Translations under genes and position numbers: made by a program
Source of the DNA: a virus
Taxonomy: Duplodnaviria > Caudoviricetes
Reading direction: 5' to 3' (one strand)
Length of the DNA stretch: 64,000 nt
IMG/VR virus record: IMGVR_UViG_3300005714_000005
Coordinates: 1-64,000 of that record
In this document: one piece after another, positions 7,902-33,674 of the stretch
Layout of the letters: each line of letters begins with the position of its first letter
Numbering within the stretch: position 1 is the stretch's first letter
Notes under the pieces: model-generated
Databases searched by the model: none
What the model was told of the DNA's origin: nothing
The model's input: the letters and a program-made list of their open reading frames with translations, nothing else

Positions 7902-9203
7902 ATGAGGGAAATGAATCCATTTACATTTTTAATTGATAAGCAAGTTGATAAGAAAGTTGAAGAAATCCAAACTAAAATAATCAAAGGTAATGAAAAAGTA
8001 ATTGAAGAAGCTAGAGAGAATTATAAAGAATTAGAGAAACAACGTGAATTAACTGCTAAATTACAGGAAGAAATTATGTCATTGAAATCAATCATTGATA
8101 GCAAGGAGAAAATAATTGATTTTAAACAAAAGGAAATTGAGGAAAAACAACTTGAAGTTGATAAAATAAATAATAGTCTTTATGCTGAAGATTGTGGAAT
8201 GTATACAGATATTCAACAAATTGCTTTTAAGTTTTCAAACTCTGAGCAATATCAAAATGCTATCCAATCTAATCTTAAAGCACAAGAAGAAATGGTAGCA
8301 ATGGGGACTGCTTGTGAATGTGCTATCAATTGGACAGTAGGGAATAGCGTGAAGAAAGGTGCTAAGATGACGAAAGATGGAATTGCTATGGCACTGCGTT
8401 GTTTCAATGCAGAGTGTGGAGCAATTATTGGGAATATCAGTTCTCGTAGCACTTATAATTCTATTGAAACAAAAATTGAGAAATCATTCAAAGCTATCAA
8501 TCGTTTGAATAAAGTATCGCAAATTGTAATTACTGAAAAATACTTAGAGTTAAAAATTGAGTTAGCCCACTTAGTATATGAACAAGCTATCATAGTAGCC
8601 GAGGAGAAGGAGGAAGCTAGACGACAACGTGCAATTTTGCGTGAAGAAGAAAAGTTGGCTCGTGAGATTGAGAAAGAAATGGAAAAGTTAAATAATGAGC
8701 GTATTAAATATGAGCAGGAATTACAACGTTTAATCGAGCAACAATTAGATAACCAACGTGTTGAAGATTTACAAAATAAAATTCAAGAGTTAGACGAGCA
8801 AGAAATCAACCTTGAAGAACGATTAAAAAATAAAGCAGGATATGTTTATGTGATAAGCTCGCCTGTTATGGAGGGTATGGTCAAAATCGGAGTAAGTAGG
8901 AGACTTAATCCTTATGAGCGAATCGCAGAATTATCTAATGCTAGTTCACCTTTCAAGATGATTACTCATGGGGTCGTATTTTCTGAGGACGCTTTTGAAT
9001 TGGAAAATAAATTGCATAAACACTTTGATGATAGAAGGGTAAACAAACTAAATCGTAGACGTGAATGGTTTATCTGCACACCTCAAGAAGTTGGAGAATT
9101 TATTAATGCCAATATTGATAAAACTGTTGAGTTTAGTTACAATGTTAAGGACTATGAATATGAGGAAAGCAAGAAAATTGCTTCCTCGATGAAAGGAGAA
9201 TAA
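7902..9203 (+). CDS. DUF4041 plus T5orf172/GIY-YIG-like domain protein
   Basis: Coiled coil, LRCFNAEC; C-terminal GYVYVIS...KIGVSRRLNPYER...LENKLHKHF...EWF. Confidence 0.8.
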   Translation: MREMNPFTFLIDKQVDKKVEEIQTKIIKGNEKVIEEARENYKELEKQRELTAKLQEEIMSLKSIIDSKEKIIDFKQKEIEEKQLEVDKINNSLYAEDCGMYTDIQQIAFKFSNSEQYQNAIQSNLKAQEEMVAMGTACECAINWTVGNSVKKGAKMTKDGIAMALRCFNAECGAIIGNISSRSTYNSIETKIEKSFKAINRLNKVSQIVITEKYLELKIELAHLVYEQAIIVAEEKEEARRQRAILREEEKLAREIEKEMEKLNNERIKYEQELQRLIEQQLDNQRVEDLQNKIQELDEQEINLEERLKNKAGYVYVISSPVMEGMVKIGVSRRLNPYERIAELSNASSPFKMITHGVVFSEDAFELENKLHKHFDDRRVNKLNRRREWFICTPQEVGEFINANIDKTVEFSYNVKDYEYEESKKIASSMKGE

Positions 9204-9205
9204 TT

Positions 9206-10216
9206 ATGAAGGGAATCAAAAGAGAAAGAATTGGACAGACTTTCAAAAGTAATCAAGGTTATATTTTTAAAATAGTTGACTATATTAATTCTAAAGAAGT
9301 AATTATAGAATTTCAAGATGAACATAAATATTCTTATACGGTAACATATAGACAGTGTCAACAAGGAAAAGTAAACAATCCCTTCCACAGAACAGTTCGT
9401 GGTGTTGGTTATATTGGGGTTGGCAAATATAAACCTGGTATTGGGAATGGAAAAGTTAGTAGAGAGTATAAAGTGTGGGAAAGAATGTTTGACAGATGCT
9501 ACAACGAGAATACGAGAGAACTTAATAGCACCTATAAAGATTGCAAGGTCTGTAAGCGTTGGCATTGTTACCAAAACTTTGCAGAAGATATAGTTAAAAT
9601 AGAGGGATATGAGTTATGGTTAAATAATCCAAACAAAGGCATAGCCCTCGATAAAGATATAAAGGGTAAAGGCTCAAAACTATATAGTCTTGAAAATTGT
9701 TGCTTCGTTACTATTGCTGAAAATAGCTTAGAAAGAATAACAAGAGTGCCTATGTCTACCCTATCTGTAGTTGGATTTCATATTTACTCAAATGAACAAG
9801 TTAAATACAAGTCACTTCAAGATTTACCCGAGTGTTTCCCAAAAAGCCAAATTAGCTCAGGAATAAAATCAAAGGGTTGGTGTTTCTCAAGTGACTATAT
9901 CTTTATGAAAGAAGATGAAGTTGATATGAGATTAATCAATGAGTTACGCTACACATATGATAAAAGAGTTGTTGTTTTAAAAGCAAGTATAAAAGATATA
10001 ACCATATTTGAGAATCCACAAGAAGTGGTTAAGGCAAAATTAATATCAAGAACTGCAATTGACAGGACTTTGAAAAGAAGGAATTTAAAAATTATTAATG
10101 ATTGCCAGTTCGTTTATCTAAAAGAAATTCCATACATTCATGCTGAGATTGACTCAACAGTTGATTTCCTCAAAATTTACAATGAGGAATATGAAATGAG
10201 TAAAAAGTTAAAATAA
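9206..10216 (+). CDS. Free-standing HNH-type homing endonuclease
   Basis: YKVWERMFDRCY...CKRWHCYQNF...LDKDI...YSLENCCFV. Confidence 0.7.
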   Translation: MKGIKRERIGQTFKSNQGYIFKIVDYINSKEVIIEFQDEHKYSYTVTYRQCQQGKVNNPFHRTVRGVGYIGVGKYKPGIGNGKVSREYKVWERMFDRCYNENTRELNSTYKDCKVCKRWHCYQNFAEDIVKIEGYELWLNNPNKGIALDKDIKGKGSKLYSLENCCFVTIAENSLERITRVPMSTLSVVGFHIYSNEQVKYKSLQDLPECFPKSQISSGIKSKGWCFSSDYIFMKEDEVDMRLINELRYTYDKRVVVLKASIKDITIFENPQEVVKAKLISRTAIDRTLKRRNLKIINDCQFVYLKEIPYIHAEIDSTVDFLKIYNEEYEMSKKLK

Positions 10217-12845: not shown

Positions 12846-15800
12846 ATGGCAAACCTATACAGCATTAGAAAAATAGTGAAAATTCCTAGCTCAATGCTAA
12901 GCGAATCAAATCCCAAGTGGGAATTGCGAGTAAGTTTGCAAGATTTGAAGTCAAACAACCAAATTATTGGTTTGGCTTCATCTTACATTATTAGAACTCT
13001 TGATGTGATTGCAAATAGTAATTACTCAGAGAATTATGTTGTGGAACTAAAACAAAATATTAAGGCATTGTCAAAGGAAAAGACAAATGTAAAAAGTAGA
13101 CAAGAAATGAAAAAGCTAAACGATGAATTGTTTAGACAACTATACATTCCTCATTTATGTTGTATTCACATTGACAAAGGTAGCCATTATGATAGATTGA
13201 ATAAAGGTTTTAGCATTTGTGTTTATGATGAGGAAACTGGGGAAATTCTAAGTGAGGTTAATTTCAAACGTTTCTTATCAACTTCTGCTTCTATTAAGAA
13301 AAATGAAGTATTCTATATAAATGAAGATTACAAAGAAACCTTAATGAAATATGTAGACTGTGAACGTGATGAAACCATTAAATTTGTTCCTGCTAAATTA
13401 AGTGCCTATCAAGCTCTTACGATGAGTAGTAGTAATCCAGTTACGACTCCATATAACGTTTGCGTTGTTAATGATGTTGAAAGAGAGATTATCACACCCG
13501 TCTTAGAACTAGATGACTCTAAACAAGAAGAGCCTATTGTAACTCAAATAGATGACTATAAAATGAACTTAAATTGTAGTGATGGTTTTGGTTTTATTGA
13601 TGAAGAAATGGCTAGTCAATGGGCAGAGGATTTACACCTGGATTATGTTCCTAGCTCATTCATTACTCGTCATGCTTTCTGCAAAGGTGTATTAGCACGT
13701 TTCCCATATAAAGAATTTGCAAAAGAACATAATATAAAAACTATCACTGACATTTGGGGTAAAGTTTGGGATATTGAAGAAGTTGATATAATCTTGACAA
13801 CCTCAATGTTAAAACTAGCTAACTGTTATTCAAGTTGGGATGATTATTATACAAAAACCCAAAAATATTTATACACTTTTAGCGTAACAAAATATACAGC
13901 TAAGACTTTGGATATGGAAAGAACAACCAACTATCAGTTTATTCAGTCTATGGAATGGACAGATGAAGATATTAAAGGTTTCTTAAAACCAAGCCTAGAT
14001 GAAATCAAGGCTATCAAAGGAGCAGATTGGCAACGTTCTCTCGTCTACCTACGAGGTATGAGCCTAAATGAAGATAGCAAGGTGTTGAGAGATGACTACA
14101 CAAGTGCCTTGATGATTGAACCACGAATTATAGAAGATTCATATGTGAGAACTTCAATTAATAATATGATTAAGAAACGTTTAGACGATTGTAAAAAAGG
14201 AACGATTAAAGTCAGAGGAAATTATCAAACGGTTATCATTGACCCAATTCTCCTTGCCCAAAGTATGTTAGGTTTACCATTGAACCCATTGCTAGGTAAA
14301 GGAGAATACTATAGCAACTTTTGGAATCGACTAGGTGTTGATTATGTTGTATCAATGAGAGCGCCACAAGTTTCATACTCAAATATTGCACGAATGAAAC
14401 TAAAGAATACGGAAGAAATGCAAAAATGGTATCGTTATTTGGGCGAAATGTTTATTCTAAATGGTTGTGACGCAACTTGTGCTAGAATGTCAGGATGCGA
14501 CTGCGATAAATAATGTCACATTGTCGCAGTATAAAACGAGGTGAACCTTACCAGGGGTGTGTAACTTGAAGTTATGCTAACGATGGAAGCCCTAACGTGA
14601 AGTCGAGGGTAATATCGTGCCAAGTCCTAGAGATAGGGAAGGTGTAGAGACTATGGGTGATGAATGTAGCCCAGTACAATCACTATTGGTACGTGGTTGG
14701 AAGTGCCTCGCTATCGTAAGATAGAAGAGATAGTCCATTCCCTATGGAAACATAGGGTAGTAAAGGGTGACACAGTATTTAGCACCGATGATAAATATAT
14801 CATTAAAGGAGCTATGCGAGAAGTATTACCTGTTGTTTGTTTACAGAAATCCGCTTCTAAACAAATTTGTGACGAAAATTCATTTATTGAATCCGATAAA
14901 ATCTTAATCAAAGGTACGGTTGAAGATGTTGGTACGGTTACAAATCGTGCAACAAATATTGAATCATTTAAAGCCAACTTCCCAAGAGATAGTAAAGAAT
15001 GGAAAGAACTTGACTATCGTGTTCAAGCGTGTATTGCAATATCACAGAATTCGATTAACTTTTAGTCGAAGTAAAACTCGGTGAACTCACAAATGCGAGG
15101 TGTATAGCCAACGTATAGGATATGTAGGAAATGGCATATAATGGCTATGCTAACAGGGGAACTCCTAACGTAAAGGCGAGGACAATCCTGTGCTAAGTCC
15201 TAGCAATAGGAAAAGTGCAACGACTATCGAAAAGGTATCTTAGGAGAAAAACCTGAGAGAGCAACTGAGTAGAGTACACTCAAGGTGAAATTCCTTGTTT
15301 GGAAGTGCCGAGGTCTTGCATGTTGGTAACAGAAGTGCAAGATATGATATAGTCTACTCTCTATGGAAACATAGAGTGTCAAGGAGATTGTGCAAAGGGA
15401 ATTAAAATCGAATATGGTTTTCCTAAGTCATGGATATTGCAAAAACCAAACATAATTAGCGATAGAGATACAGAAGAAGAAAAACAACGTAAACAATTTT
15501 ATCAAACTCTTGTTTGTGATAAGAAACCGTATTTCTTCATCTATGTGTATGAACATCTGAAGAAAGAATATAACAAATTAAAACGAGATGAAGATAAACG
15601 TTGCTTAAAGGCTTTTGGCAAAACATTGCAAGAAGTATTAGACAATCCTGAAACTCAAGAAGAAAAAGATGCAGTATTCTACTACAATCGTAAAAAGATT
15701 ATTGATGAGTCACCTAGCGTCATGAATAAGATTGCTTGGTTCGTGGAAGAAGAATTTAAAAAATTCTCATTGCCAAAACCCAAAAAGGACGAATACATAG

Positions 15801-16213
15801 AATTACTAAAATCAGACAAGGCTTATAGCAAAACTACATATAGTAAAATCTTACCTCTTTATGAGGAGTATGTAAAGACAGTTAGAAATTTAAACAATAA
15901 ATTCTTACTTAATAAAACAAGTAGTTCTGAAAAGACATTAATTAGAGAAACTACGTTTAATGAGTTAAAAATTAAAATGTTATCTATTTGTTCAAATGAA
16001 GAAGAATTGTGCAATATCTTAATTGATATTTGCTATAAAAATTCTAAAAATTCAAAACACTTTGCTTGGACAATGTGTGGAGAACAAATTATCAAAAATC
16101 TATTAAGCAAGAATGAAAATAAAGTAAGCTATCCTATCTTGACAGAAAATGAAGAATTTGATTTTGAATACAAAGGCTATAAATTTAGAATGTTTACTAA
16201 GGAGTGTGAATAA
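12846..16213 (+). CDS. yonO: YonO-like single-subunit RNA polymerase; spliced join(12846..14507,14766..15055,15385..16213), ~926 aa
   Basis: Motifs SDGFG, FCKG, SMLK, NYQF, RAP; splicing restores catalytic SGCDCDGD and QNSIDCAKG; frames join exactly. Confidence 0.85.
14508..14765 (+). ncRNA. Group I intron (ORF-less) inside the RNAP catalytic motif
   Basis: P1 actgcgaU/Gtcgcagt; P10 tgtcac/gtgaca; P7 gactat/atagtc; terminal G. Confidence 0.9.
15056..15384 (+). ncRNA. Group I intron (ORF-less), second in RNAP
   Basis: P1 ttcgaU/Gtcgaa; P7 gactat/atagtc; P9 ctctatg-gaaa-catagag; terminal G; restores the frame. Confidence 0.88.
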
Positions 16214-16214
16214 G

Positions 16215-16988
16215 ATGGACATTATAGCTAATGAAGTAAGATATGTTGAAAAGCTATTAACAAACAAAACACTGACAACACGCAAGGCGAGCAAAGAGAT
16301 TAGATTGGTGGCTCAATACCACCTCTCTAATGGCTTATCGGTGGAAGAAGCAACCGAAGAGACCGTAGGTTTTATTAGTCAAGTAAACGGAAACAATAGT
16401 GGTGAAAAGTGGCGAAAAACCATAAATGGCATGATTAAAGACATATTGAAAAAGAATGATTTGAAAATGCGACAAGTAGATACAATTAATTTTACAAAAA
16501 ATGAAATAAAAACAATAGAATCGTTACAAAAGGAATCTCAAAGAAGATATGCATGGGGATTATTGGTTCTATGTAAAGTTGTGAACAATGGTAAGAAAAA
16601 CAAATGGTTGACTATAGAGCATACCAACAAGTTTTGTAAAAAGATAGGGGTTCGAATGTCAACAGTAAAAAATAGGGAGTTGGTATTTCACGAATTAAAA
16701 AATGAACATTTGCTAAAAATATCTAGGCAAACAGGAAATACTAGCATGGAAGTTTTGTATGTGGAAGATGAGGGGGAAATTTTCGCTTCATGCCCAACTT
16801 ATAATCACTTAACTTCCGAAGAAAATTATTTCGAGAATGCAATGAAGCTATATGAGATGATATTTAATGGGGCGAGAGTTTACAAATGTGAAGTTTGCAA
16901 AGCTTATGCTCTAGCCAAAACAAGAACAAAAAAATATTGCGATACTTGTGCTGAAGAGGTGAAAAGAGGGCGAGTTAAGAATGGCTAA
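16215..16988 (+). CDS. Hypothetical protein with C-terminal zinc ribbon, next to RNAP
   Basis: CEVC...YCDTC; coupled to the RNAP stop. Confidence 0.7.
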   Translation: MDIIANEVRYVEKLLTNKTLTTRKASKEIRLVAQYHLSNGLSVEEATEETVGFISQVNGNNSGEKWRKTINGMIKDILKKNDLKMRQVDTINFTKNEIKTIESLQKESQRRYAWGLLVLCKVVNNGKKNKWLTIEHTNKFCKKIGVRMSTVKNRELVFHELKNEHLLKISRQTGNTSMEVLYVEDEGEIFASCPTYNHLTSEENYFENAMKLYEMIFNGARVYKCEVCKAYALAKTRTKKYCDTCAEEVKRGRVKNG

Positions 16989-18018
16989 TGTCTATACTTC
17001 TGAAGAATTAAATAATCTAAGAAATATAAAGATGATTATCTATATAATAACTAATCTCCTCAATCAAAAGAAATACGTGGGGCAAACTTCACGAACTTTT
17101 AATGAAAGATATAAAGGCTCGGGAGTTGGTGTTTTCAGAGTAAAGGGGTGTGAATCCAACTCACACCTTGCCTCTGCCATTCAAAAATACGGTGCAGATA
17201 ATTTTAAGGTTGAAATTATAGAGGTCTGTGGAACTAAAGAAGAATTGAACGAAAGAGAAAAATATTATATTGAGTTATATGACACAACAAATCCCCAAAA
17301 GGGATATAACTACTGCGAAGGTGGCGGTAGTGGCGTTCGCAATATCACAAGAGATTCAAAAAGAAAAAAGATATTGAAACAACACCAAGAGTTGAAACCA
17401 CAGACTTTTGCAAATTATTTGAAGAAATTAAAAATTAATGGACTATCAGAAGAAACTGTTCTTTCTGAAATTTTAGAAACTCCTCTATTTATAGAAAATG
17501 TAAAAGGCGAAGTAAAATATTTTTCTTCTCTTTCCAAGTTTCAAAAATCATTAGGAAAGAAAGAACAAAACATTGTGAAATTGCATTACTTCTATAAAGT
17601 TTCAAGAAATGAAATAAATAAAGAGCTTTACAAAACAAAATTTTATCCCTACACCTTTTATAGAGAAGATGAAGTCAACCTTCCTCAACATATAGTAAAA
17701 ATAAAAACTCAATTAGAACAAAAGAGAAAAGAAAAGCAGGAGAAAGATAAGATAGCCAACGATTTGTTAAACACAATTACTTATCTATTAGAAAAACATG
17801 GGGAGTGGGAAGTGTGGGAGGAAGAAACGATAGAGCGTGTAGTCATAACAAAACGTGGTTGGGTAGTTCAAGAAGATAAATACGAACAATACTTACAAGA
17901 CTTGATAAAAGTAGTAGAAGAAAGTCACCCTTATTATTGGGATTTAATATTTAAAGAGGGTGATGATTGGAAAATCAACTTCTTTCTAATTGACTTTTAT
18001 AATAAAATTTACAAATAA
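16981..18018 (+). CDS. GIY-YIG homing endonuclease (free-standing)
   Basis: IIYIITN...KYVGQT...LNEREKYYI...GYN. Confidence 0.85.
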   Translation: MANVYTSEELNNLRNIKMIIYIITNLLNQKKYVGQTSRTFNERYKGSGVGVFRVKGCESNSHLASAIQKYGADNFKVEIIEVCGTKEELNEREKYYIELYDTTNPQKGYNYCEGGGSGVRNITRDSKRKKILKQHQELKPQTFANYLKKLKINGLSEETVLSEILETPLFIENVKGEVKYFSSLSKFQKSLGKKEQNIVKLHYFYKVSRNEINKELYKTKFYPYTFYREDEVNLPQHIVKIKTQLEQKRKEKQEKDKIANDLLNTITYLLEKHGEWEVWEEETIERVVITKRGWVVQEDKYEQYLQDLIKVVEESHPYYWDLIFKEGDDWKINFFLIDFYNKIYK

Positions 18019-20868: not shown

Positions 20869-21504
20869 ATAATTGTCGCTTTTATTCATCGGAGTTTTGG
20901 GAGGTGCTTAAACTGTACCCAAGAGCGAAGTAGGCGTTTAAGCTGAAAAGTTCCTCCGCAACCTACAGGGAAGTGTAAGTCTTAGCTAATTCGGTAGCCC
21001 CGTCTAGTTAAGCAGTCCTTGTTATCAAGTCTTTTTGCAGAGTTAGACGTTTGAAAGAAACTACTGTATAGGATTAATGTGCGTACAGAAAAGTCCGAGG
21101 AAGTGGCAATCCTTATAAACCACTAGATGATTCTTGTCTTAGCCGATACAGACAAGCTAAAAATAAAGAAAGGTCGGCTATCAAATGTAATTGTCATAGA
21201 GCGTGACAACGGTAAAATAAATAAAGCTCAATGGATGAAGCGGATGTGGTGTCTGTCTCATGACGTTGATGTAGTTTTCCTTGTTTGAGGGTGGCTATGG
21301 AGTTCTTTAGGGTGTGTGGTCGCCTGTTTCAAACTAGGAACTGAAGTTCAAAAATATCACATATGTAATAGCAATGCGATAGAAGCTACTATGTAGTCAA
21401 GGAATCGACAGACATTTATATCTTTGGTCAGAAACTAAGGATATTGACCGATAGTCTCGTGAAGTCATAAAACTATAAGCCCATGCGTGGTCGAGACAAA
21501 TTAT
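20869..21504 (+). ncRNA. Large structured ncRNA, ROOL-like
   Basis: ~640 nt with no ORF, GC above background, paired ends (ataattgtc/gacaaattat), many hairpins; GAGCGAAGTA and TGTAAGTCTTAGCT recall ROOL from memory only. Confidence 0.6.
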
Positions 21505-21987: not shown

Positions 21988-22041
21988 TATACACATATTG
22001 AAAGAATCAAGAGAGAAGGTTTGAACAGGAGGAAATTTAGA

Positions 22042-25019
22042 GTGAAAGAGTATATTAAGTTAAATAACGAGGTCATGCAAAAGGTAGACGGTTTCTACCA
22101 ATTAGATAAAGACAAGGAAGCAGTTAAAGCTTTCGAGAAAGAAGTTAAAGAACGATTAATGGATTTCGATTCATTAGAACAACGATATAAATGGTTAATT
22201 GACAATGATTACTATGTAGATTTCTTAGAAACATACGATATGGATTTCATTGAGAAATTAACAAAATATATTTATGATTTTAACTTCGAGTTCCAATCAT
22301 ACATGGCTATCTCTAAATTTTATCAAAGTTATGCCTTAAAGACAAATGATAAAAAATATTATTTAGAAACATATGAGGAACGTATCATAGCGTGTGCATT
22401 ATATTTAGCACAAGGAGATGAAGAATTTGCTTGGGAATTAGCAGAAGCTATGATTAAGCAACAATATCAACCAGCCACACCAACATTTCAAAATGCTGGT
22501 AAGAAACGTGGAGGAGAAATGATTTCATGTTTCTTATTGGAAATGGACGATACATTAAACTCTATCAACTATAACCTATCTACAATGGGGCAATTATCTA
22601 AAATAGGTGGAGGAGTATCTTGCAATTTATCTAAACTCCGTGGTCGTGGCGAGTCAATCAAAGGAGTTGAAGGTGCTGCTAGTGGAGTAGTACCAGTCAT
22701 GAAGCTTATGGAGGACACATTCTCATATGTAAATCAGTTGGGTTAAAAATACTTTGGCTCGGTATACTGGTGACAGTGTACAAAAACTATGGGGTAAATT
22801 GCTGGAACACCCTAAAGCTCTCATGCCTATGCAATAGGAGTCGAAAGACAGAAACAAGTTGAGAGATGACCTATGTTGAAATAAAAGCCGAAAGGTACTA
22901 AGGGTTATTATAATGGGCAATCAGCAGCCACATAAATCAACTCTCTTTAAAAACAAGGGAGAGGATAATCTTGGAAGAAATTTGGAAACCATGTAAAGAC
23001 TACGAAGGACTATATGAAGTTTCTAACTTGGGAAGAGTTAGAAGTTGCGATAAAATGGTTTGGAATGGTCGAACTTACTATTTTAAGAAAGGTGAGTTAA
23101 AAGCACCTAAACATAGAAAAGATGGTTATTTAACAGTATCGCTATATAAGAATAATGTGGGAAAACAGGTAAGAATACATAGACTTGTAGCTTTCGCTTT
23201 TATCGAAAACGAAAATCCTGACTTATATAAAGACGTTAATCACATAGACTGTAATCGCTCAAATAATGAAGCAACAAATTTAGAATGGTGCAATGCTTTA
23301 ACAAACCACGAACATAGCCATAAATTGGGGAGAAAAACAGAACCTCCAACTCATTATGGTGAAGATAATAAATTCTCTACACCTGTTTATGTTACATTGT
23401 TAAAAACAGGTGAGATATTGGAATTTGTTAGCATAAGTGATGGTTTGAAGTATTTAGGAGTTGCTAATCCCTATTCTAAAGTTGCAAATGTATTTGCTTC
23501 AATTAAGAGAAACGGAACAGCCTATGGTTGCAAATGGAAACTAAAAGAGAGTTGATTTATAGGTTCAGAGACTAAAATCCCACATCTCACTGAGATGAAG
23601 ATATAGTCCATCCCCTCGTGAAAGCGAGGGACTAAGATGCAAAGACCTGGAGCAGGTGTAGCCTACTTAAATATCTTTCATTGGGATATTGAAGAATTTT
23701 TAGAAACTAAGAAAATCAATGCTAGTGAGAAAGCACGATTACAAACATTAAGTATTGGTGTTGTAATTCCTGATAAATTTATCGAATTAGCAAGAGAGAA
23801 TAAAGACGTATACGTATTTGCACCTTATACAGTTTATAAAGAATATGGGCAACATTTAGATGACATAGATATTGATAAAGTTTACGAAGATTTGGTTGCG
23901 AATCCAAATGTAAAGAAACGTAAATTAAATCCTCGTACATTATTGACAAATATTGCACGAAGTCAATTTGAGTCAGGTTATCCATATATCATGTATAAAT
24001 CTAATGCAAATAAAGTCCATGCCTTAAAGAATATTGGTGATATTAAAATCTCTAACCTCTGCACCGAAATTTTTCAATTACAAGAAACTTCAATTATCAA
24101 CGACTATGGGATTGAAGATGAAATCAAACGTGATATTAACTGCAACTTAGGTTCGCTTAATATTGTCAACGTTATGGAAAATAAAAGTATTGACAAAGCA
24201 GTAGCAATGGGTATGAGAGCATTAACTTCTGTATCTAATATGAGTAATGTTGCCAATGCACCAGGAGTTAAAAAAGCTAATGAAGAACTTCATGCAGTTG
24301 GTTTAGGTGCTATGAATTTACATGGCTACTTAGCTAAAAATAAAATTGCTTATGAAAGTGAAGAAGCAAAAGATTTCGTTCGCACATTCTTCATGATTGT
24401 CAATTATTATTCTATCTTAGAAAGTTCACTTATTGCAATGGAAAGAAATGAAACATTTAAAGATTTTGATAAATCGGAATATGCAAATGGTAACTATTTT
24501 AAGAAATATATTAAGAATGACTATTCACCAAAAACAGAAAAAGTTAAAAAATTGTTTGAGGGGATTTACATTCCTAATCTATTAAATTGGCAAGGATTAT
24601 CTGAAATTGTTGCAGAACATGGTATGTATCATGCCTATCGTTTGGCTATTGCACCTACTCAATCTATTGGTTATGTGCAAAACGCAACACCAAGTATTGC
24701 ACCTATCGTTAGCGTAGTAGAAACACGCACATATGCAGACTCAACCACATATTATCCAATGCCATTCTTAGACAAGAAAAATTTCTTCTTCTACAAATCG
24801 GCATATCAAATGGATATGATGAAAGTTATTGACTTGGTGGCAGAGGCACAAGAGCATATAGATCAAGGTATCTCAACGGTATTATATGTAGATAGCAATA
24901 CACCAACAAGCCAACTTGTGAGATACTATATGTATGCACATTTCAAGGGATTAAAAAGTTTATATTATACACGCACAAAATTATTAACAGCAACAGAATG
25001 TGAAAGTTGCTCAGTTTAG
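22042..25019 (+). CDS. nrdE: Class Ib ribonucleotide reductase alpha; join(22042..22743,23640..25019), ~693 aa
   Basis: PATPTF, SCFLL, NQLG|QRPGAG, SNLCTEI, CNLGS, IAPT, C-terminal CESCSV. Confidence 0.95.
22744..23639 (+). mobile_element. Group I intron in nrdE encoding an HNH endonuclease
   Basis: Exon ends in U; P10 ctttg/caaag; aatcagcag, gagacta and gatatagtcc core elements; terminal G. Confidence 0.9.
22971..23555 (+). CDS. Intron-encoded NUMOD4-HNH endonuclease
   Basis: EIWKPCKDYEGLYEVSNLGRVRS; HRLVA...VNHIDCNRSNN...NLEW. Confidence 0.92.
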   Translation: MEEIWKPCKDYEGLYEVSNLGRVRSCDKMVWNGRTYYFKKGELKAPKHRKDGYLTVSLYKNNVGKQVRIHRLVAFAFIENENPDLYKDVNHIDCNRSNNEATNLEWCNALTNHEHSHKLGRKTEPPTHYGEDNKFSTPVYVTLLKTGEILEFVSISDGLKYLGVANPYSKVANVFASIKRNGTAYGCKWKLKES

Positions 25020-27613: not shown

Positions 27614-27690
27614 GCTAGTGTAGCTCAGTTGGTAGAGCAATCGCATGGTAAGCGATAGGTCGTGGGTTCAAGCCCCATCATCTAGCACCA
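27614..27690 (+). tRNA. tRNA-Thr(GGU)
   Basis: Cloverleaf; anticodon arm ATCGC-ATGGTAA-GCGAT; TTCAAGC T loop; encoded CCA. Confidence 0.9.
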
Positions 27691-31120: not shown

Positions 31121-33674
31121 ATGCCAACAGAAAAAATAGGTTATAAAAGTGAATACACCCAGGAACAACAAGTTGAAAGATGGTCAGAGTTAATAGCCTA
31201 CTTTCGTTGGTATCCCGACATCATGCTAGATTGGCTAAGACCAACCGAAATAGACAAAGAAACTGGTAAGGTGAGAAAGTTAGGGATAGAATTAGGAGCG
31301 GATCAACGCCTACTACTTAGGAATATGTGTCGTTTTCCTTATAACTTCGAGGTTTTGAGCCGAGGATATGGTAAAACAACTTTCGAGCTATTGGCTTTGT
31401 ATCTAATGGCTATTCTATATCCTGATACAACTTGGTCAATGTCTGCTCAGACACTACAAACAAGTGCAGGGTTCTTTAGTGATAAACACGCAGATATTAT
31501 GAGATTTTATCCTATGTTGTTAAATGAAATTGACGGCAAGGTAAGAATTAGCGATAATGCAGTTGAGATTTGTTTTAAGAATGGCTCGGTTATAACAAAT
31601 GTAACCAATAGTGGTACGGCAAAAGGTCTCAGAAGGAACGGACTCGTATTCGAAGAAGCGGCATTAATGAACTTTAACAACTATCGTGACAATACCGAAC
31701 CTTTAACTTCAGAGGAGATTAAATCGCCACGTTATCAATCGGTTTATGACCCATATTGTAGCAACAAACAAAACTTTGTAACAACTGCTTACTATAAAAA
31801 TGAAGCATTTGAATTTTGTCGCAATATGGTGCTAGACATGGCTAATTGTAAAGGTGCTTTTGTTTACGGTGCTAGTTATAAATTGCCTGCGAAATTTGGA
31901 CGAGGGAGAAGTGTAGAACAAGTAGAGGCTCTGATTGATAAAGTAGGGCAATTAATGTTCAATTTCAACTACGGTTCTCGTTGGGCAGTCAACAATGGCT
32001 CTTGTATCGTTGATATGGATGAACTTAAAGCCTTACAAACTTTAAGTCAAGCAGAATTAAAAGGTCAAAAGAATGGCGAATACTACATCTCAATAGACGT
32101 TGCCCGAAGTGCAAAGACTTCTAACAATGCTAGTGCAATTGCTATCTTGCGGGTCAGACGAGATGCACGAGGTAAAGTTCGTGAGATACAAGCGGTCAAT
32201 CTAGTAAAATTACCAAACGGACTAAACTTTAAACAACAAACTGTAATTTTAAAACGCCTATGTAATCTATTTGAGCCTGAAGCATTGATAGTAGATATTA
32301 ATGGGTTAAATCTAGCCCCTTTGTATAGCAATATACACCGAAAAACTCTTTTAATTCATGGGAACTCTCAATCTTTAATTGAGACAATCATGAGCGAAGC
32401 TAAAATTCAATGTTATATTTTCAATGGAAAGAAGTGACTATATGAAAGAAGTATGGAAACCGATAAAGAACTACGAAGGTTATTACGAAGTTTCAAATAA
32501 GGGTAAAGTAAGAACAGTTACAAGATTTGTTCCGAATAGTGGCAAACATGGAATGTGGTATGAATCACGTATTCTCAAATTCAATATAGATAAAGACGGA
32601 TACTGCACAGTTGCTTTACAGAGAGAAGGAAAAGTAAAGCGATGTAAAGTGCATAGATTGGTGCTATCTACTTTTGACAATTATGAGAGTGATTTACAAG
32701 TAAACCACATTGACGGAAATAAACTCAATAACTGTTTAAGCAACCTTGAATGGGTAACTAGTAGTGAAAATATCAAACACGCATATAGTATTGGACTTAA
32801 AACCCAATCAGGTTCAAAGAATAACGGTTCTAAACTAACTGAGGAGCAAGTTATTCAAATGTGTGATTTCTTCAAATACACAACTTTTACTAATAAACAA
32901 ATCGCCGATATGTTTGACATAAAAAGCGATGAAACGATTAGAAAAATTAGAAAAAGAAAAGCGTGGACACACGTGACACAAAACATTGAATTTTAGAACG
33001 TGCAACGACTATCCCGAAAGGGAGTACACTCAAGCGAGTGGAAATGGAGAGTACCCAACTTGGGTAAAGATATAGTCTGGACTATGTGGTGACATATAGA
33101 AGTTCATAAGAGAACTGGCAAGGTGGTAGCGTACCTTGTTGAACACATTGTAGGTAAGGGACTTATGGATTATATTTTAGACGAAATTACATTAGAAGAT
33201 GGTACGGTATTGGAGGCTTACGACATGATTAATACTGACTACCGAAGTGAATATCGAAATGCTAAACGCTGTGTTTATGGTATTGAAGCACAATCTAACA
33301 ATACAGAAATGATTGTGCAATTTCAAAACATTGTAGGAACAAAAATCCTACGACTATTAGAACCTTTTGATGTTAATAAAGCTATCGACATTCCCGATGA
33401 AGATTATCTAGTGAGTGATATTTTACCGTTTTTACGAACTGAGAATTTTATCGGTGAAGTGCAAAACTTAACTGTTGAGGAAATTCAAGGTAGTGGTAAA
33501 TTAAAAGTCGGTCAACTCGTTAGAGCAGATAAGGATATTTTCTCGGCAGTTCAGATGGGTTCGTGGTATATCATGAAACATAAGAATGTTGGCTATGAGG
33601 AAGAGCAAGATATTGATTATCATGCAGTATTCAAATCTCTTATGAGAAAGCCTGATATTTATAAACATAGATAG
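31121..33674 (+). CDS. terL: Terminase large subunit; join(31121..32306,33151..33674), ~569 aa
   Basis: Walker A SRGYGKT, Walker B LVFEEA, nuclease IDVAR; splicing restores DINGLGKG. Confidence 0.9.
32307..33150 (+). mobile_element. Group I intron in terL encoding an HNH endonuclease
   Basis: P1 gggU/Gccc; gcaacgactatc and aagatatagtct core elements; terminal G. Confidence 0.88.
32442..32996 (+). CDS. Intron-encoded NUMOD4-HNH endonuclease
   Basis: EVWKPIKNYEGYYEVSNKGKV; HRLV...VNHIDGNKLNN..SNLEW. Confidence 0.92.
   Translation: MKEVWKPIKNYEGYYEVSNKGKVRTVTRFVPNSGKHGMWYESRILKFNIDKDGYCTVALQREGKVKRCKVHRLVLSTFDNYESDLQVNHIDGNKLNNCLSNLEWVTSSENIKHAYSIGLKTQSGSKNNGSKLTEEQVIQMCDFFKYTTFTNKQIADMFDIKSDETIRKIRKRKAWTHVTQNIEF

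Follow-up and report, generated by a model that had tools for sequence, protein, structure and literature searches.

Phage group I introns are selfish DNA. Homing carries them into highly conserved codons of essential genes, where they are tolerated because they splice, and their endonuclease gene is often lost afterwards. In Staphylococcus phage Twort, orf142 carries three such introns. Two group I introns also interrupt nrdE of the same phage, as PMC12908238 cites Landthaler et al. 2002 (PMC113830), and RNA polymerase genes are among the genes entered: a vRNAP subunit gene of phage PhiPA3 contains an intron with a homing endonuclease (reviewed in PMC12908238), and the RNA polymerase gene gp273/274 of phage 201phi2-1 harbors a mobile intron (PMC2919709). 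The RNA polymerase YonO of phage SPbeta has an Asp triad essential for catalysis and transcribes late genes (Forrest et al. 2017, PMC5467207), and YonO-like proteins have been treated in Iyer et al. 2003 and in Ruprich-Robert & Thuriaux 2010 (PMC2919709). Here we describe a yonO-like gene that is interrupted twice, at positions 12846-16213 (+ strand) of a 64,000-nt stretch of viral DNA, hereafter the window, taken from record IMGVR_UViG_3300005714_000005. The full record is 105.7 kb long, comes from an uncultured virus and is estimated to be 68% complete.

The window polymerase shares with SPbeta YonO (Forrest et al. 2017, PMC5467207) a single-chain two-barrel design, the DxDGD triad, detectable similarity and a phage-like neighborhood, but the two proteins are 23-26% identical, SPbeta yonO is uninterrupted, and the C-terminal ~90 residues of YonO seemingly reside here, judging from a weak match, in a separate downstream gene. 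As in Twort, several small related introns occupy conserved codons of one essential Firmicute-phage gene, and the introns of one genome resemble each other; the Twort targets, however, are a ribonucleotide reductase gene and a structural gene whose splicing has been shown, whereas the target here is an RNA polymerase gene whose splicing is predicted. With PhiPA3 and 201phi2-1 the locus has in common a mobile intron in a phage two-barrel RNA polymerase gene, and relatives of the window gene bear endonucleases at the same sites; unlike those multisubunit enzymes, the window polymerase is a single chain, both of its introns lack an endonuclease, and one lies inside the Asp triad. Split yonO homologs of Clostridium phage c-st and Enterocloster phage CB473P3 use the same insertion hot spots. 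Literature searches combining YonO with intron or group I intron, and Enterocloster phage with intron, returned no report of introns in yonO-like genes.

We favor, with a probability of roughly 0.9, the reading that this YonO-type polymerase gene was invaded by two mobile group I introns belonging to one phage intron family. In the transcript, each intron would adopt the group I core fold and, after binding guanosine, cut itself out; the two reactions would join three exons into a 926-codon mRNA that alone would encode active enzyme; on unspliced RNA, translation would end two codons into intron 1 or four codons into intron 2. The case is one of ordinary selfish-intron colonization of an essential phage gene and reveals no new mechanism. 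A first-pass annotation, made from the letters of the window, had described the split gene and had proposed that its splicing serves as a checkpoint; the gene is indeed split as described, and the interpretation holds in part.

Anatomy and product of the interrupted gene

The locus consists of three open stretches in differing frames, parted by spacers of 258 and 329 bases (Table 1). Joining 12846-14507, 14766-15055 and 15385-16213 yields 2781 nt, corresponding to 926 codons followed by TAA, with no internal stops. The first junction falls between codons and restores the catalytic Asp triad (...SGCDCD/GDTVF, where the slash marks the insertion point), and the second splits an Ile codon (AT/A) and restores an I-D-x-x-K-G motif (...QNS-I/DCAKG) 97 codons downstream of DxD/GD; the predicted ligated sequences are GACTGCGAT/GGTGAC and TTCGAT/AGATTG. 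Read without splicing, the first frame continues for one Lys codon into intron 1 and then meets TAA (14511-14513), and the second ends in intron 2 at TAG (15063-15065). The joined protein aligns colinearly over both junctions with the uninterrupted polymerases of Enterocloster phage PMBT24 and Bacillus phage BUCT082 and with SPbeta YonO, which place DFDGD or DNDGD (the latter in YonO) opposite DCD/GD and [IL]Dx[AL]K opposite the second junction. The residues of D-x-D-x-D and I-D-x-x-K-G are invariant in all 54 of 54 uninterrupted homologs. The exon and intron boundaries and junction sequences given in the first-pass annotation, including its stop two codons into intron 1, are therefore correct as read from the sequence; alignment places the introns where it had put them, between DCD and GD and inside the Ile codon of QNSI-DCAKG, and joining opens the continuous frame that it had expected of genuine junctions.

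On the anatomy of the gene, an active polymerase would require both splicing events, and this part of the earlier interpretation holds. A naturally split enzyme, in which the three pieces would be translated apart and then assemble in the manner of the split beta/beta' of jumbo phages, has a precedent in the split RNA polymerase genes of those phages (PMC7598289) and a superficial parallel in the separate N-terminal and C-terminal YonO fragments listed by the annotators of c-st. We give this idea practically no credence, since one break falls within the metal-binding loop of five residues, exon 2 does not open with a start codon, uninterrupted homologs are single chains, and the spacers are recognizable as group I introns.

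The identity of the product was approached through protein families, translated searches and fold comparison. Exon 1 matches PHROG 25339 from end to end (558 positions, E 6e-114) and also PHROG 8308, and exons 2 and 3 match positions 1-66 and 78-344 of PHROG 35857. In tblastn searches of phage genomes, exon 1 found yonO-annotated genes of the SPbeta group (E 1e-13 to 2e-14, 23-28% identity) and, more strongly, homologs in Clostridium phage c-st and in Enterocloster, Thomasclavelia and Bacillus phages; together with the alignment of the triad, these matches bear out the earlier assignment as a YonO-like RNA polymerase. Megablast of the region against phage genomes gave no match, Pfam returned nothing significant for any of the three exons, and an exon 1 profile compared with PDB sequences gave a single marginal match, to RDR2 (E 0.011), leaving the question to be settled by a fold search. 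The fold was modeled with AlphaFold on L094, the closest uninterrupted relative (54-56% identical; pLDDT 89, pTM 0.84). Compared as a whole, the model matched RDR2 of maize and Arabidopsis as well as QDE-1, with E values from 1e-18 to 1e-13 and a TM score of about 0.47. Weaker matches linked the model to the two-barrel, single-chain RNA polymerases gp64 of phage P32 and that of crAss phage phi14:2. On these comparisons, the gene product is best described as a YonO-type single-chain two-barrel RNA polymerase.

Table 1. Coordinates of exons, introns, predicted intron elements and neighboring genes in the window.
Feature	Position	Strand	Description
Exon 1	12846-14507	+	YonO-like RNA polymerase gene; 554 codons, end ...SGCDCD; phase 0; from open reading frame (ORF) list and sequence
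Intron 1	14508-14765	+	Group I, 258 nt, without ORF
Exon 2	14766-15055	+	290 nt; begins GD...; final two bases are the first two of the Ile codon
Intron 2	15056-15384	+	Group I, 329 nt, without ORF
Exon 3	15385-16213	+	Begins with third base of the Ile codon, then DCAKG...; stop TAA 16211-16213
Intron 1 P1	14500-14507/14523-14530		
Intron 1 P4-P6	14580-14643		
Intron 1 P7	14649-14653/14731-14735		
Intron 1 P8	14711-14724		
Intron 1 P9	14740-14757		GAAA loop
Intron 1 terminal G	14765		
Intron 2 P1	15050-15055/15065-15070		
Intron 2 P4-P6	15153-15216		
Intron 2 P7	15222-15226/15350-15354		
Intron 2 P8	15314-15342		
Intron 2 P9	15359-15376		GAAA loop
Intron 2 terminal G	15384		
HNH endonuclease gene	9206-10216	+	Free-standing, near polymerase gene
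Downstream conserved gene	16215-16988	+	257 aa, PHROG 30716
GIY-YIG (SegE-like) homing endonuclease gene	16981-18018	+	Free-standing; Pfam GIY-YIG E 2.7e-9, SegE_GIY-YIG E 5e-6

Group I signatures of the two spacers

Both spacers carry the hallmarks of group I introns. Against the Rfam group I catalytic intron model (RF00028, gathering score 50 bits), intron 2 scored 65.9 bits over the full model (E 1.8e-14), and intron 1 gave a full-length match of 45.5 bits, with E values of 1.7e-10 in a 501-nt search and 2.2e-8 in the whole window. The covariance-model search that the first-pass annotation had proposed as a check thus places intron 2 above the threshold and intron 1 below it. At the 5' splice sites, an 8-bp P1 helix is closed by U14507.G14523 in intron 1 and a 6-bp P1 by U15055.G15065 in intron 2, both apparent in the sequence and present in the minimum-free-energy fold. 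As read from the sequence, P7 forms in intron 1 by pairing of GACUA with UAGUC, and each intron also has a short P8, a P9 with a GAAA loop and, as its last base, a G; intron 2 has additional helices between P7 and P3'. The U-G pairs, P7 elements and terminal G residues that had been reported for both introns are accordingly present. Compared with dinucleotide shuffles, both introns fold into more stable structures (z -3.4 for intron 1, -4.8 for intron 2). Neither contains an ORF of any size, as had been stated before, and none of homing-endonuclease size would fit into 258 or 329 nt.

The two introns are also related to each other. Their gap-free alignment from P3 to P7 has the same base in 62 of 83 columns (75%), in agreement with the common ancestry proposed from their shared sequence blocks, and the differences in their helices are mostly compensatory (for example, P4 changes from GAU/AUC to AGG/CCU). 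MAFFT alignments of whole introns, or of P3-P7 segments from distant relatives, were poor, and RNAalifold predicted 0 pairs from them. In their place, a covariance model of P4-P5-P6 was trained on the two introns of the window and run over the window itself, the remainder of the genome and the related loci. The model scored 108.7 bits on intron 1. Over 25 related domains, in an alignment that was fitted to the model and is thus biased towards it, standard pairs filled 93% of cells as against 28-46% when partners were slid, a large margin, and compensatory change on both sides was found at 18 of 20 pairs.

These structural data bear on the idea that one or both introns have decayed to the point of no longer splicing, so that the polymerase gene would be a pseudogene or weakly expressed. 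Decay would fit the absence of endonuclease genes, the small size of intron 1 (258 nt) and its score under the Rfam threshold, and the source of the sequence, a viral contig that is 68% complete and comes from an uncultured virus. Yet the three exons are intact and keep the invariant catalytic residues, the U.G pairs at the splice sites and the G at the end of each intron are preserved, and the mostly compensatory helix differences indicate selection on structure, and we consider decay very improbable.

Insertion hot spots among related polymerase loci

To place the two introns in a comparative setting, the spliced protein was searched by tblastn against 80 viral and 72 genome contigs (n = 152) recovered with the exon 1 profile. 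Extra DNA was present in 17 of 80 viral and 9 of 72 genome contigs (26 of 152, about 17%), always at the same two places, so that the survey of yonO homologs suggested by the first-pass annotation finds both insertion sites reused. The Asp-triad site is occupied in 11 viral and 3 genome contigs, and the I-D-x-x-K-G site in 8 viral contigs (plus L024, in which the boundary was not resolved) and 7 genome contigs; both sites are filled in three viral contigs (L014, L015, L071) and one genome contig (L118). Phage c-st has its insertion at DxD/GD and CB473P3 has one at each hot spot, with weak to moderate RF00028 matches. The closest relatives of the window polymerase (L011, L094, L095; 50-56% identity) have no introns. 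Searches with Rfam over whole related loci at E 0.01 missed their introns, and searches of narrow stretches gave weak matches only.

At base resolution (loci L014, L015, L036, L038, L041, L042, L071, L002), each hot spot comprises two insertion points 4-6 bases apart: DxD/GD and D/xDGD at the first, and after the second base of the Ile codon or after the Asp codon at the second. The second intron of CB473P3 follows the Asp codon, 4 nt downstream of the site of intron 2 in the window. Insertions of ~300-590 bases in the related loci contain no ORF, and those of ~900-1170 bases carry, within P6, homing endonuclease genes of the HNH_3+NUMOD4 or GIY-YIG/NUMOD3 type. The closest relative of intron 2 is an intron at the identical site in L014, colinear with it and with an HNH gene in P6, and the nearest match to intron 1 among the sampled introns is intron 2. 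The 3' ends of the two introns that L015 carries in one gene are nearly identical. Judged from these sequences, the staggered insertion points and the shared 3' ends point to repeated invasion and to exchange between introns. As a separate observation, in the SPbeta-like phages Goe11 (L003, 4710-6016) and Goe14 the yonO annotation is divided into yonO_1 and yonO_2 on either side of a 300-aa ORF; this break is more C-terminal than both hot spots, and no RF00028 match was found there at E 0.01.

The introns sit in conserved motifs because homing endonucleases target conserved DNA, and they persist there because imprecise deletion would kill the gene. Both window introns probably came to be endonuclease-less through loss of the gene. 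What we observe directly is the signatures of the introns, a frame and motifs that joining restores, and the distribution among relatives; from these we infer splicing and a history of homing.

Several points weigh against this account. Intron 1 falls short of the RF00028 gathering score (45.5 against 50 bits), so its membership in group I rests on its other features, and hand assignment of P2/P3 (blocks UGCUAAC, GGUGAAC and GAAGUGCC) is ambiguous in both introns. Splicing is a prediction from sequence. The fold evidence comes from a modeled relative at 54-56% identity in place of the spliced protein of the window, and a late-gene role for the window enzyme would be an extrapolation from SPbeta YonO at 23-26% identity. 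Finally, the choice between an endonuclease that was lost and one that was never present leans on the related ORF-bearing introns, by which loss is suggested.

Other invaded genes in the same genome, and what the introns mean

Intervening elements of the same kind appear elsewhere in this phage. The terminase large-subunit gene is split (ORFs 31121-32437, 32424-32996 and 33123-33674, + strand) around an HNH ORF (PHROG 59, E 2e-50) with partial RF00028 matches of 37.6 and 36.8 bits on its two sides, within 32297-33099 (+) of the window; this region is probably one endonuclease-bearing group I intron. A family-C-like DNA polymerase gene (PHROG 405/12219) lies in at least three pieces at L092 4100-13600 (- strand), equivalent to 88100-97600 of the genome; its pieces are parted by an HNH gene (L092 5781-6632) and a GIY-YIG gene (8132-8905), and a further GIY-YIG gene at L092 11305-12138 precedes recJ. 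Rfam at E 0.01 found no intron in the rest of the genome, whereas our P4-P6 model and the protein evidence indicate several there, with model matches at L092 6593-6677 (55.8 bits), L092 12159-12230 and L091 15679-15761 (- strand). The first of these is the best match outside the training pair and adjoins the DNA polymerase gene of the same phage, which suggests, as far as sequence similarity can tell, that the intron spread within the genome.

In the checkpoint proposed earlier, the introns are kept because splicing that depends on guanosine and on folding gates the polymerase and, through it, late transcription. It is true that active enzyme would require both splicing events and that both introns keep intact cores though they have no endonuclease gene, and mutualistic or regulatory roles of introns are discussed by Edgell et al. 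2011 (PMC3073962), as cited in PMC5746245. However, 126 of the 152 related loci, the three closest relatives included, have no insertion at either site; endonuclease-bearing mobile introns occupy the same sites elsewhere; insertion points differ by 4-6 nt from one lineage to another, which is what independent invasions would produce; the genes for terminase and DNA polymerase in this phage have been entered as well; and the introns show no sign of a sensor or switch element. The sporadic occupancy and the intron-free nearest relatives thus speak against this half of the earlier interpretation, and a checkpoint, which the data do not support, appears distinctly unlikely to us. The introns are selfish passengers, not a designed control device.

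Two free-standing endonuclease genes lie close to the polymerase gene (Table 1), and the GIY-YIG gene could mobilize its neighborhood in trans. A benefit to the phage might follow if the introns are kept because they destroy, at both hot spots, the recognition sites of homing endonucleases of related phages, conferring immunity during co-infection while the free-standing GIY-YIG enzyme attacks intron-less rivals; this is a speculative explanation to which we attach a low probability. On the same speculative footing, the need for two splicing events could tie polymerase supply to guanosine nucleotide levels. The GIY-YIG gene is the second gene after the polymerase gene, and its first 8 bases lie within the end of the preceding gene.

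That preceding gene encodes a conserved protein (PHROG 30716), which BLASTP among neighboring genes also finds after the polymerase gene in c-st, PMBT24, CB473P3 and BUCT082. Its product ends in a CxxC...CxxC motif, and the c-st record names its homolog 'YonO C-ter only'. BLASTP of this downstream product against YonO gave no match, and a profile of five homologs weakly matched YonO residues 739-829 (19.6 bits in a target set of four sequences). By this profile comparison, the gene may represent the C-terminal domain of YonO carried as a separate subunit in this clade.

Further features of the window were noted alongside. The ORF of a ribonucleotide reductase large subunit (23637-25019, +) covers only positions 352-795 of the 975 positions of PHROG 84 and is preceded by short ORFs at 22021-22746 and 22971-23555; the nrd gene at 22021-25019 may be interrupted too. 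A match to the Rfam 6A RNA (RF02925; 45.2 bits, above the gathering score) lies at 21186-21236 (+) inside an ORF-free region, and a tRNA (58 bits) at 27614-27687 (+). Relatives of the phage are mostly prophages and phages of Lachnospiraceae and other gut Clostridia, and the phage itself probably infects a clostridial bacterium of the gut and not Bacillus.

The consequences are most immediate for annotation. The first-pass annotation had anticipated that standard procedures would call the gene in fragments, and existing records do so: the c-st piece is annotated 'YonO-homolog (N-ter only)', the CB473P3 pieces are hypothetical proteins, and others are entered as 'conserved phage-related'. Likewise, PHROG 25339 (exon 1) and PHROG 35857 (exons 2 and 3) are families of exon fragments. 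Because the introns were unannotated, public records and these two PHROG families treat the fragments as separate proteins.

The main value of the finding lies in the annotation and natural history of these elements. YonO-type polymerases bear on the origin of cellular RNA polymerases, and about 17% of the sampled loci are broken by unannotated introns. With two recurring hot spots that hold both endonuclease-bearing and empty introns, these polymerase genes offer a clean natural series for the homing cycle.

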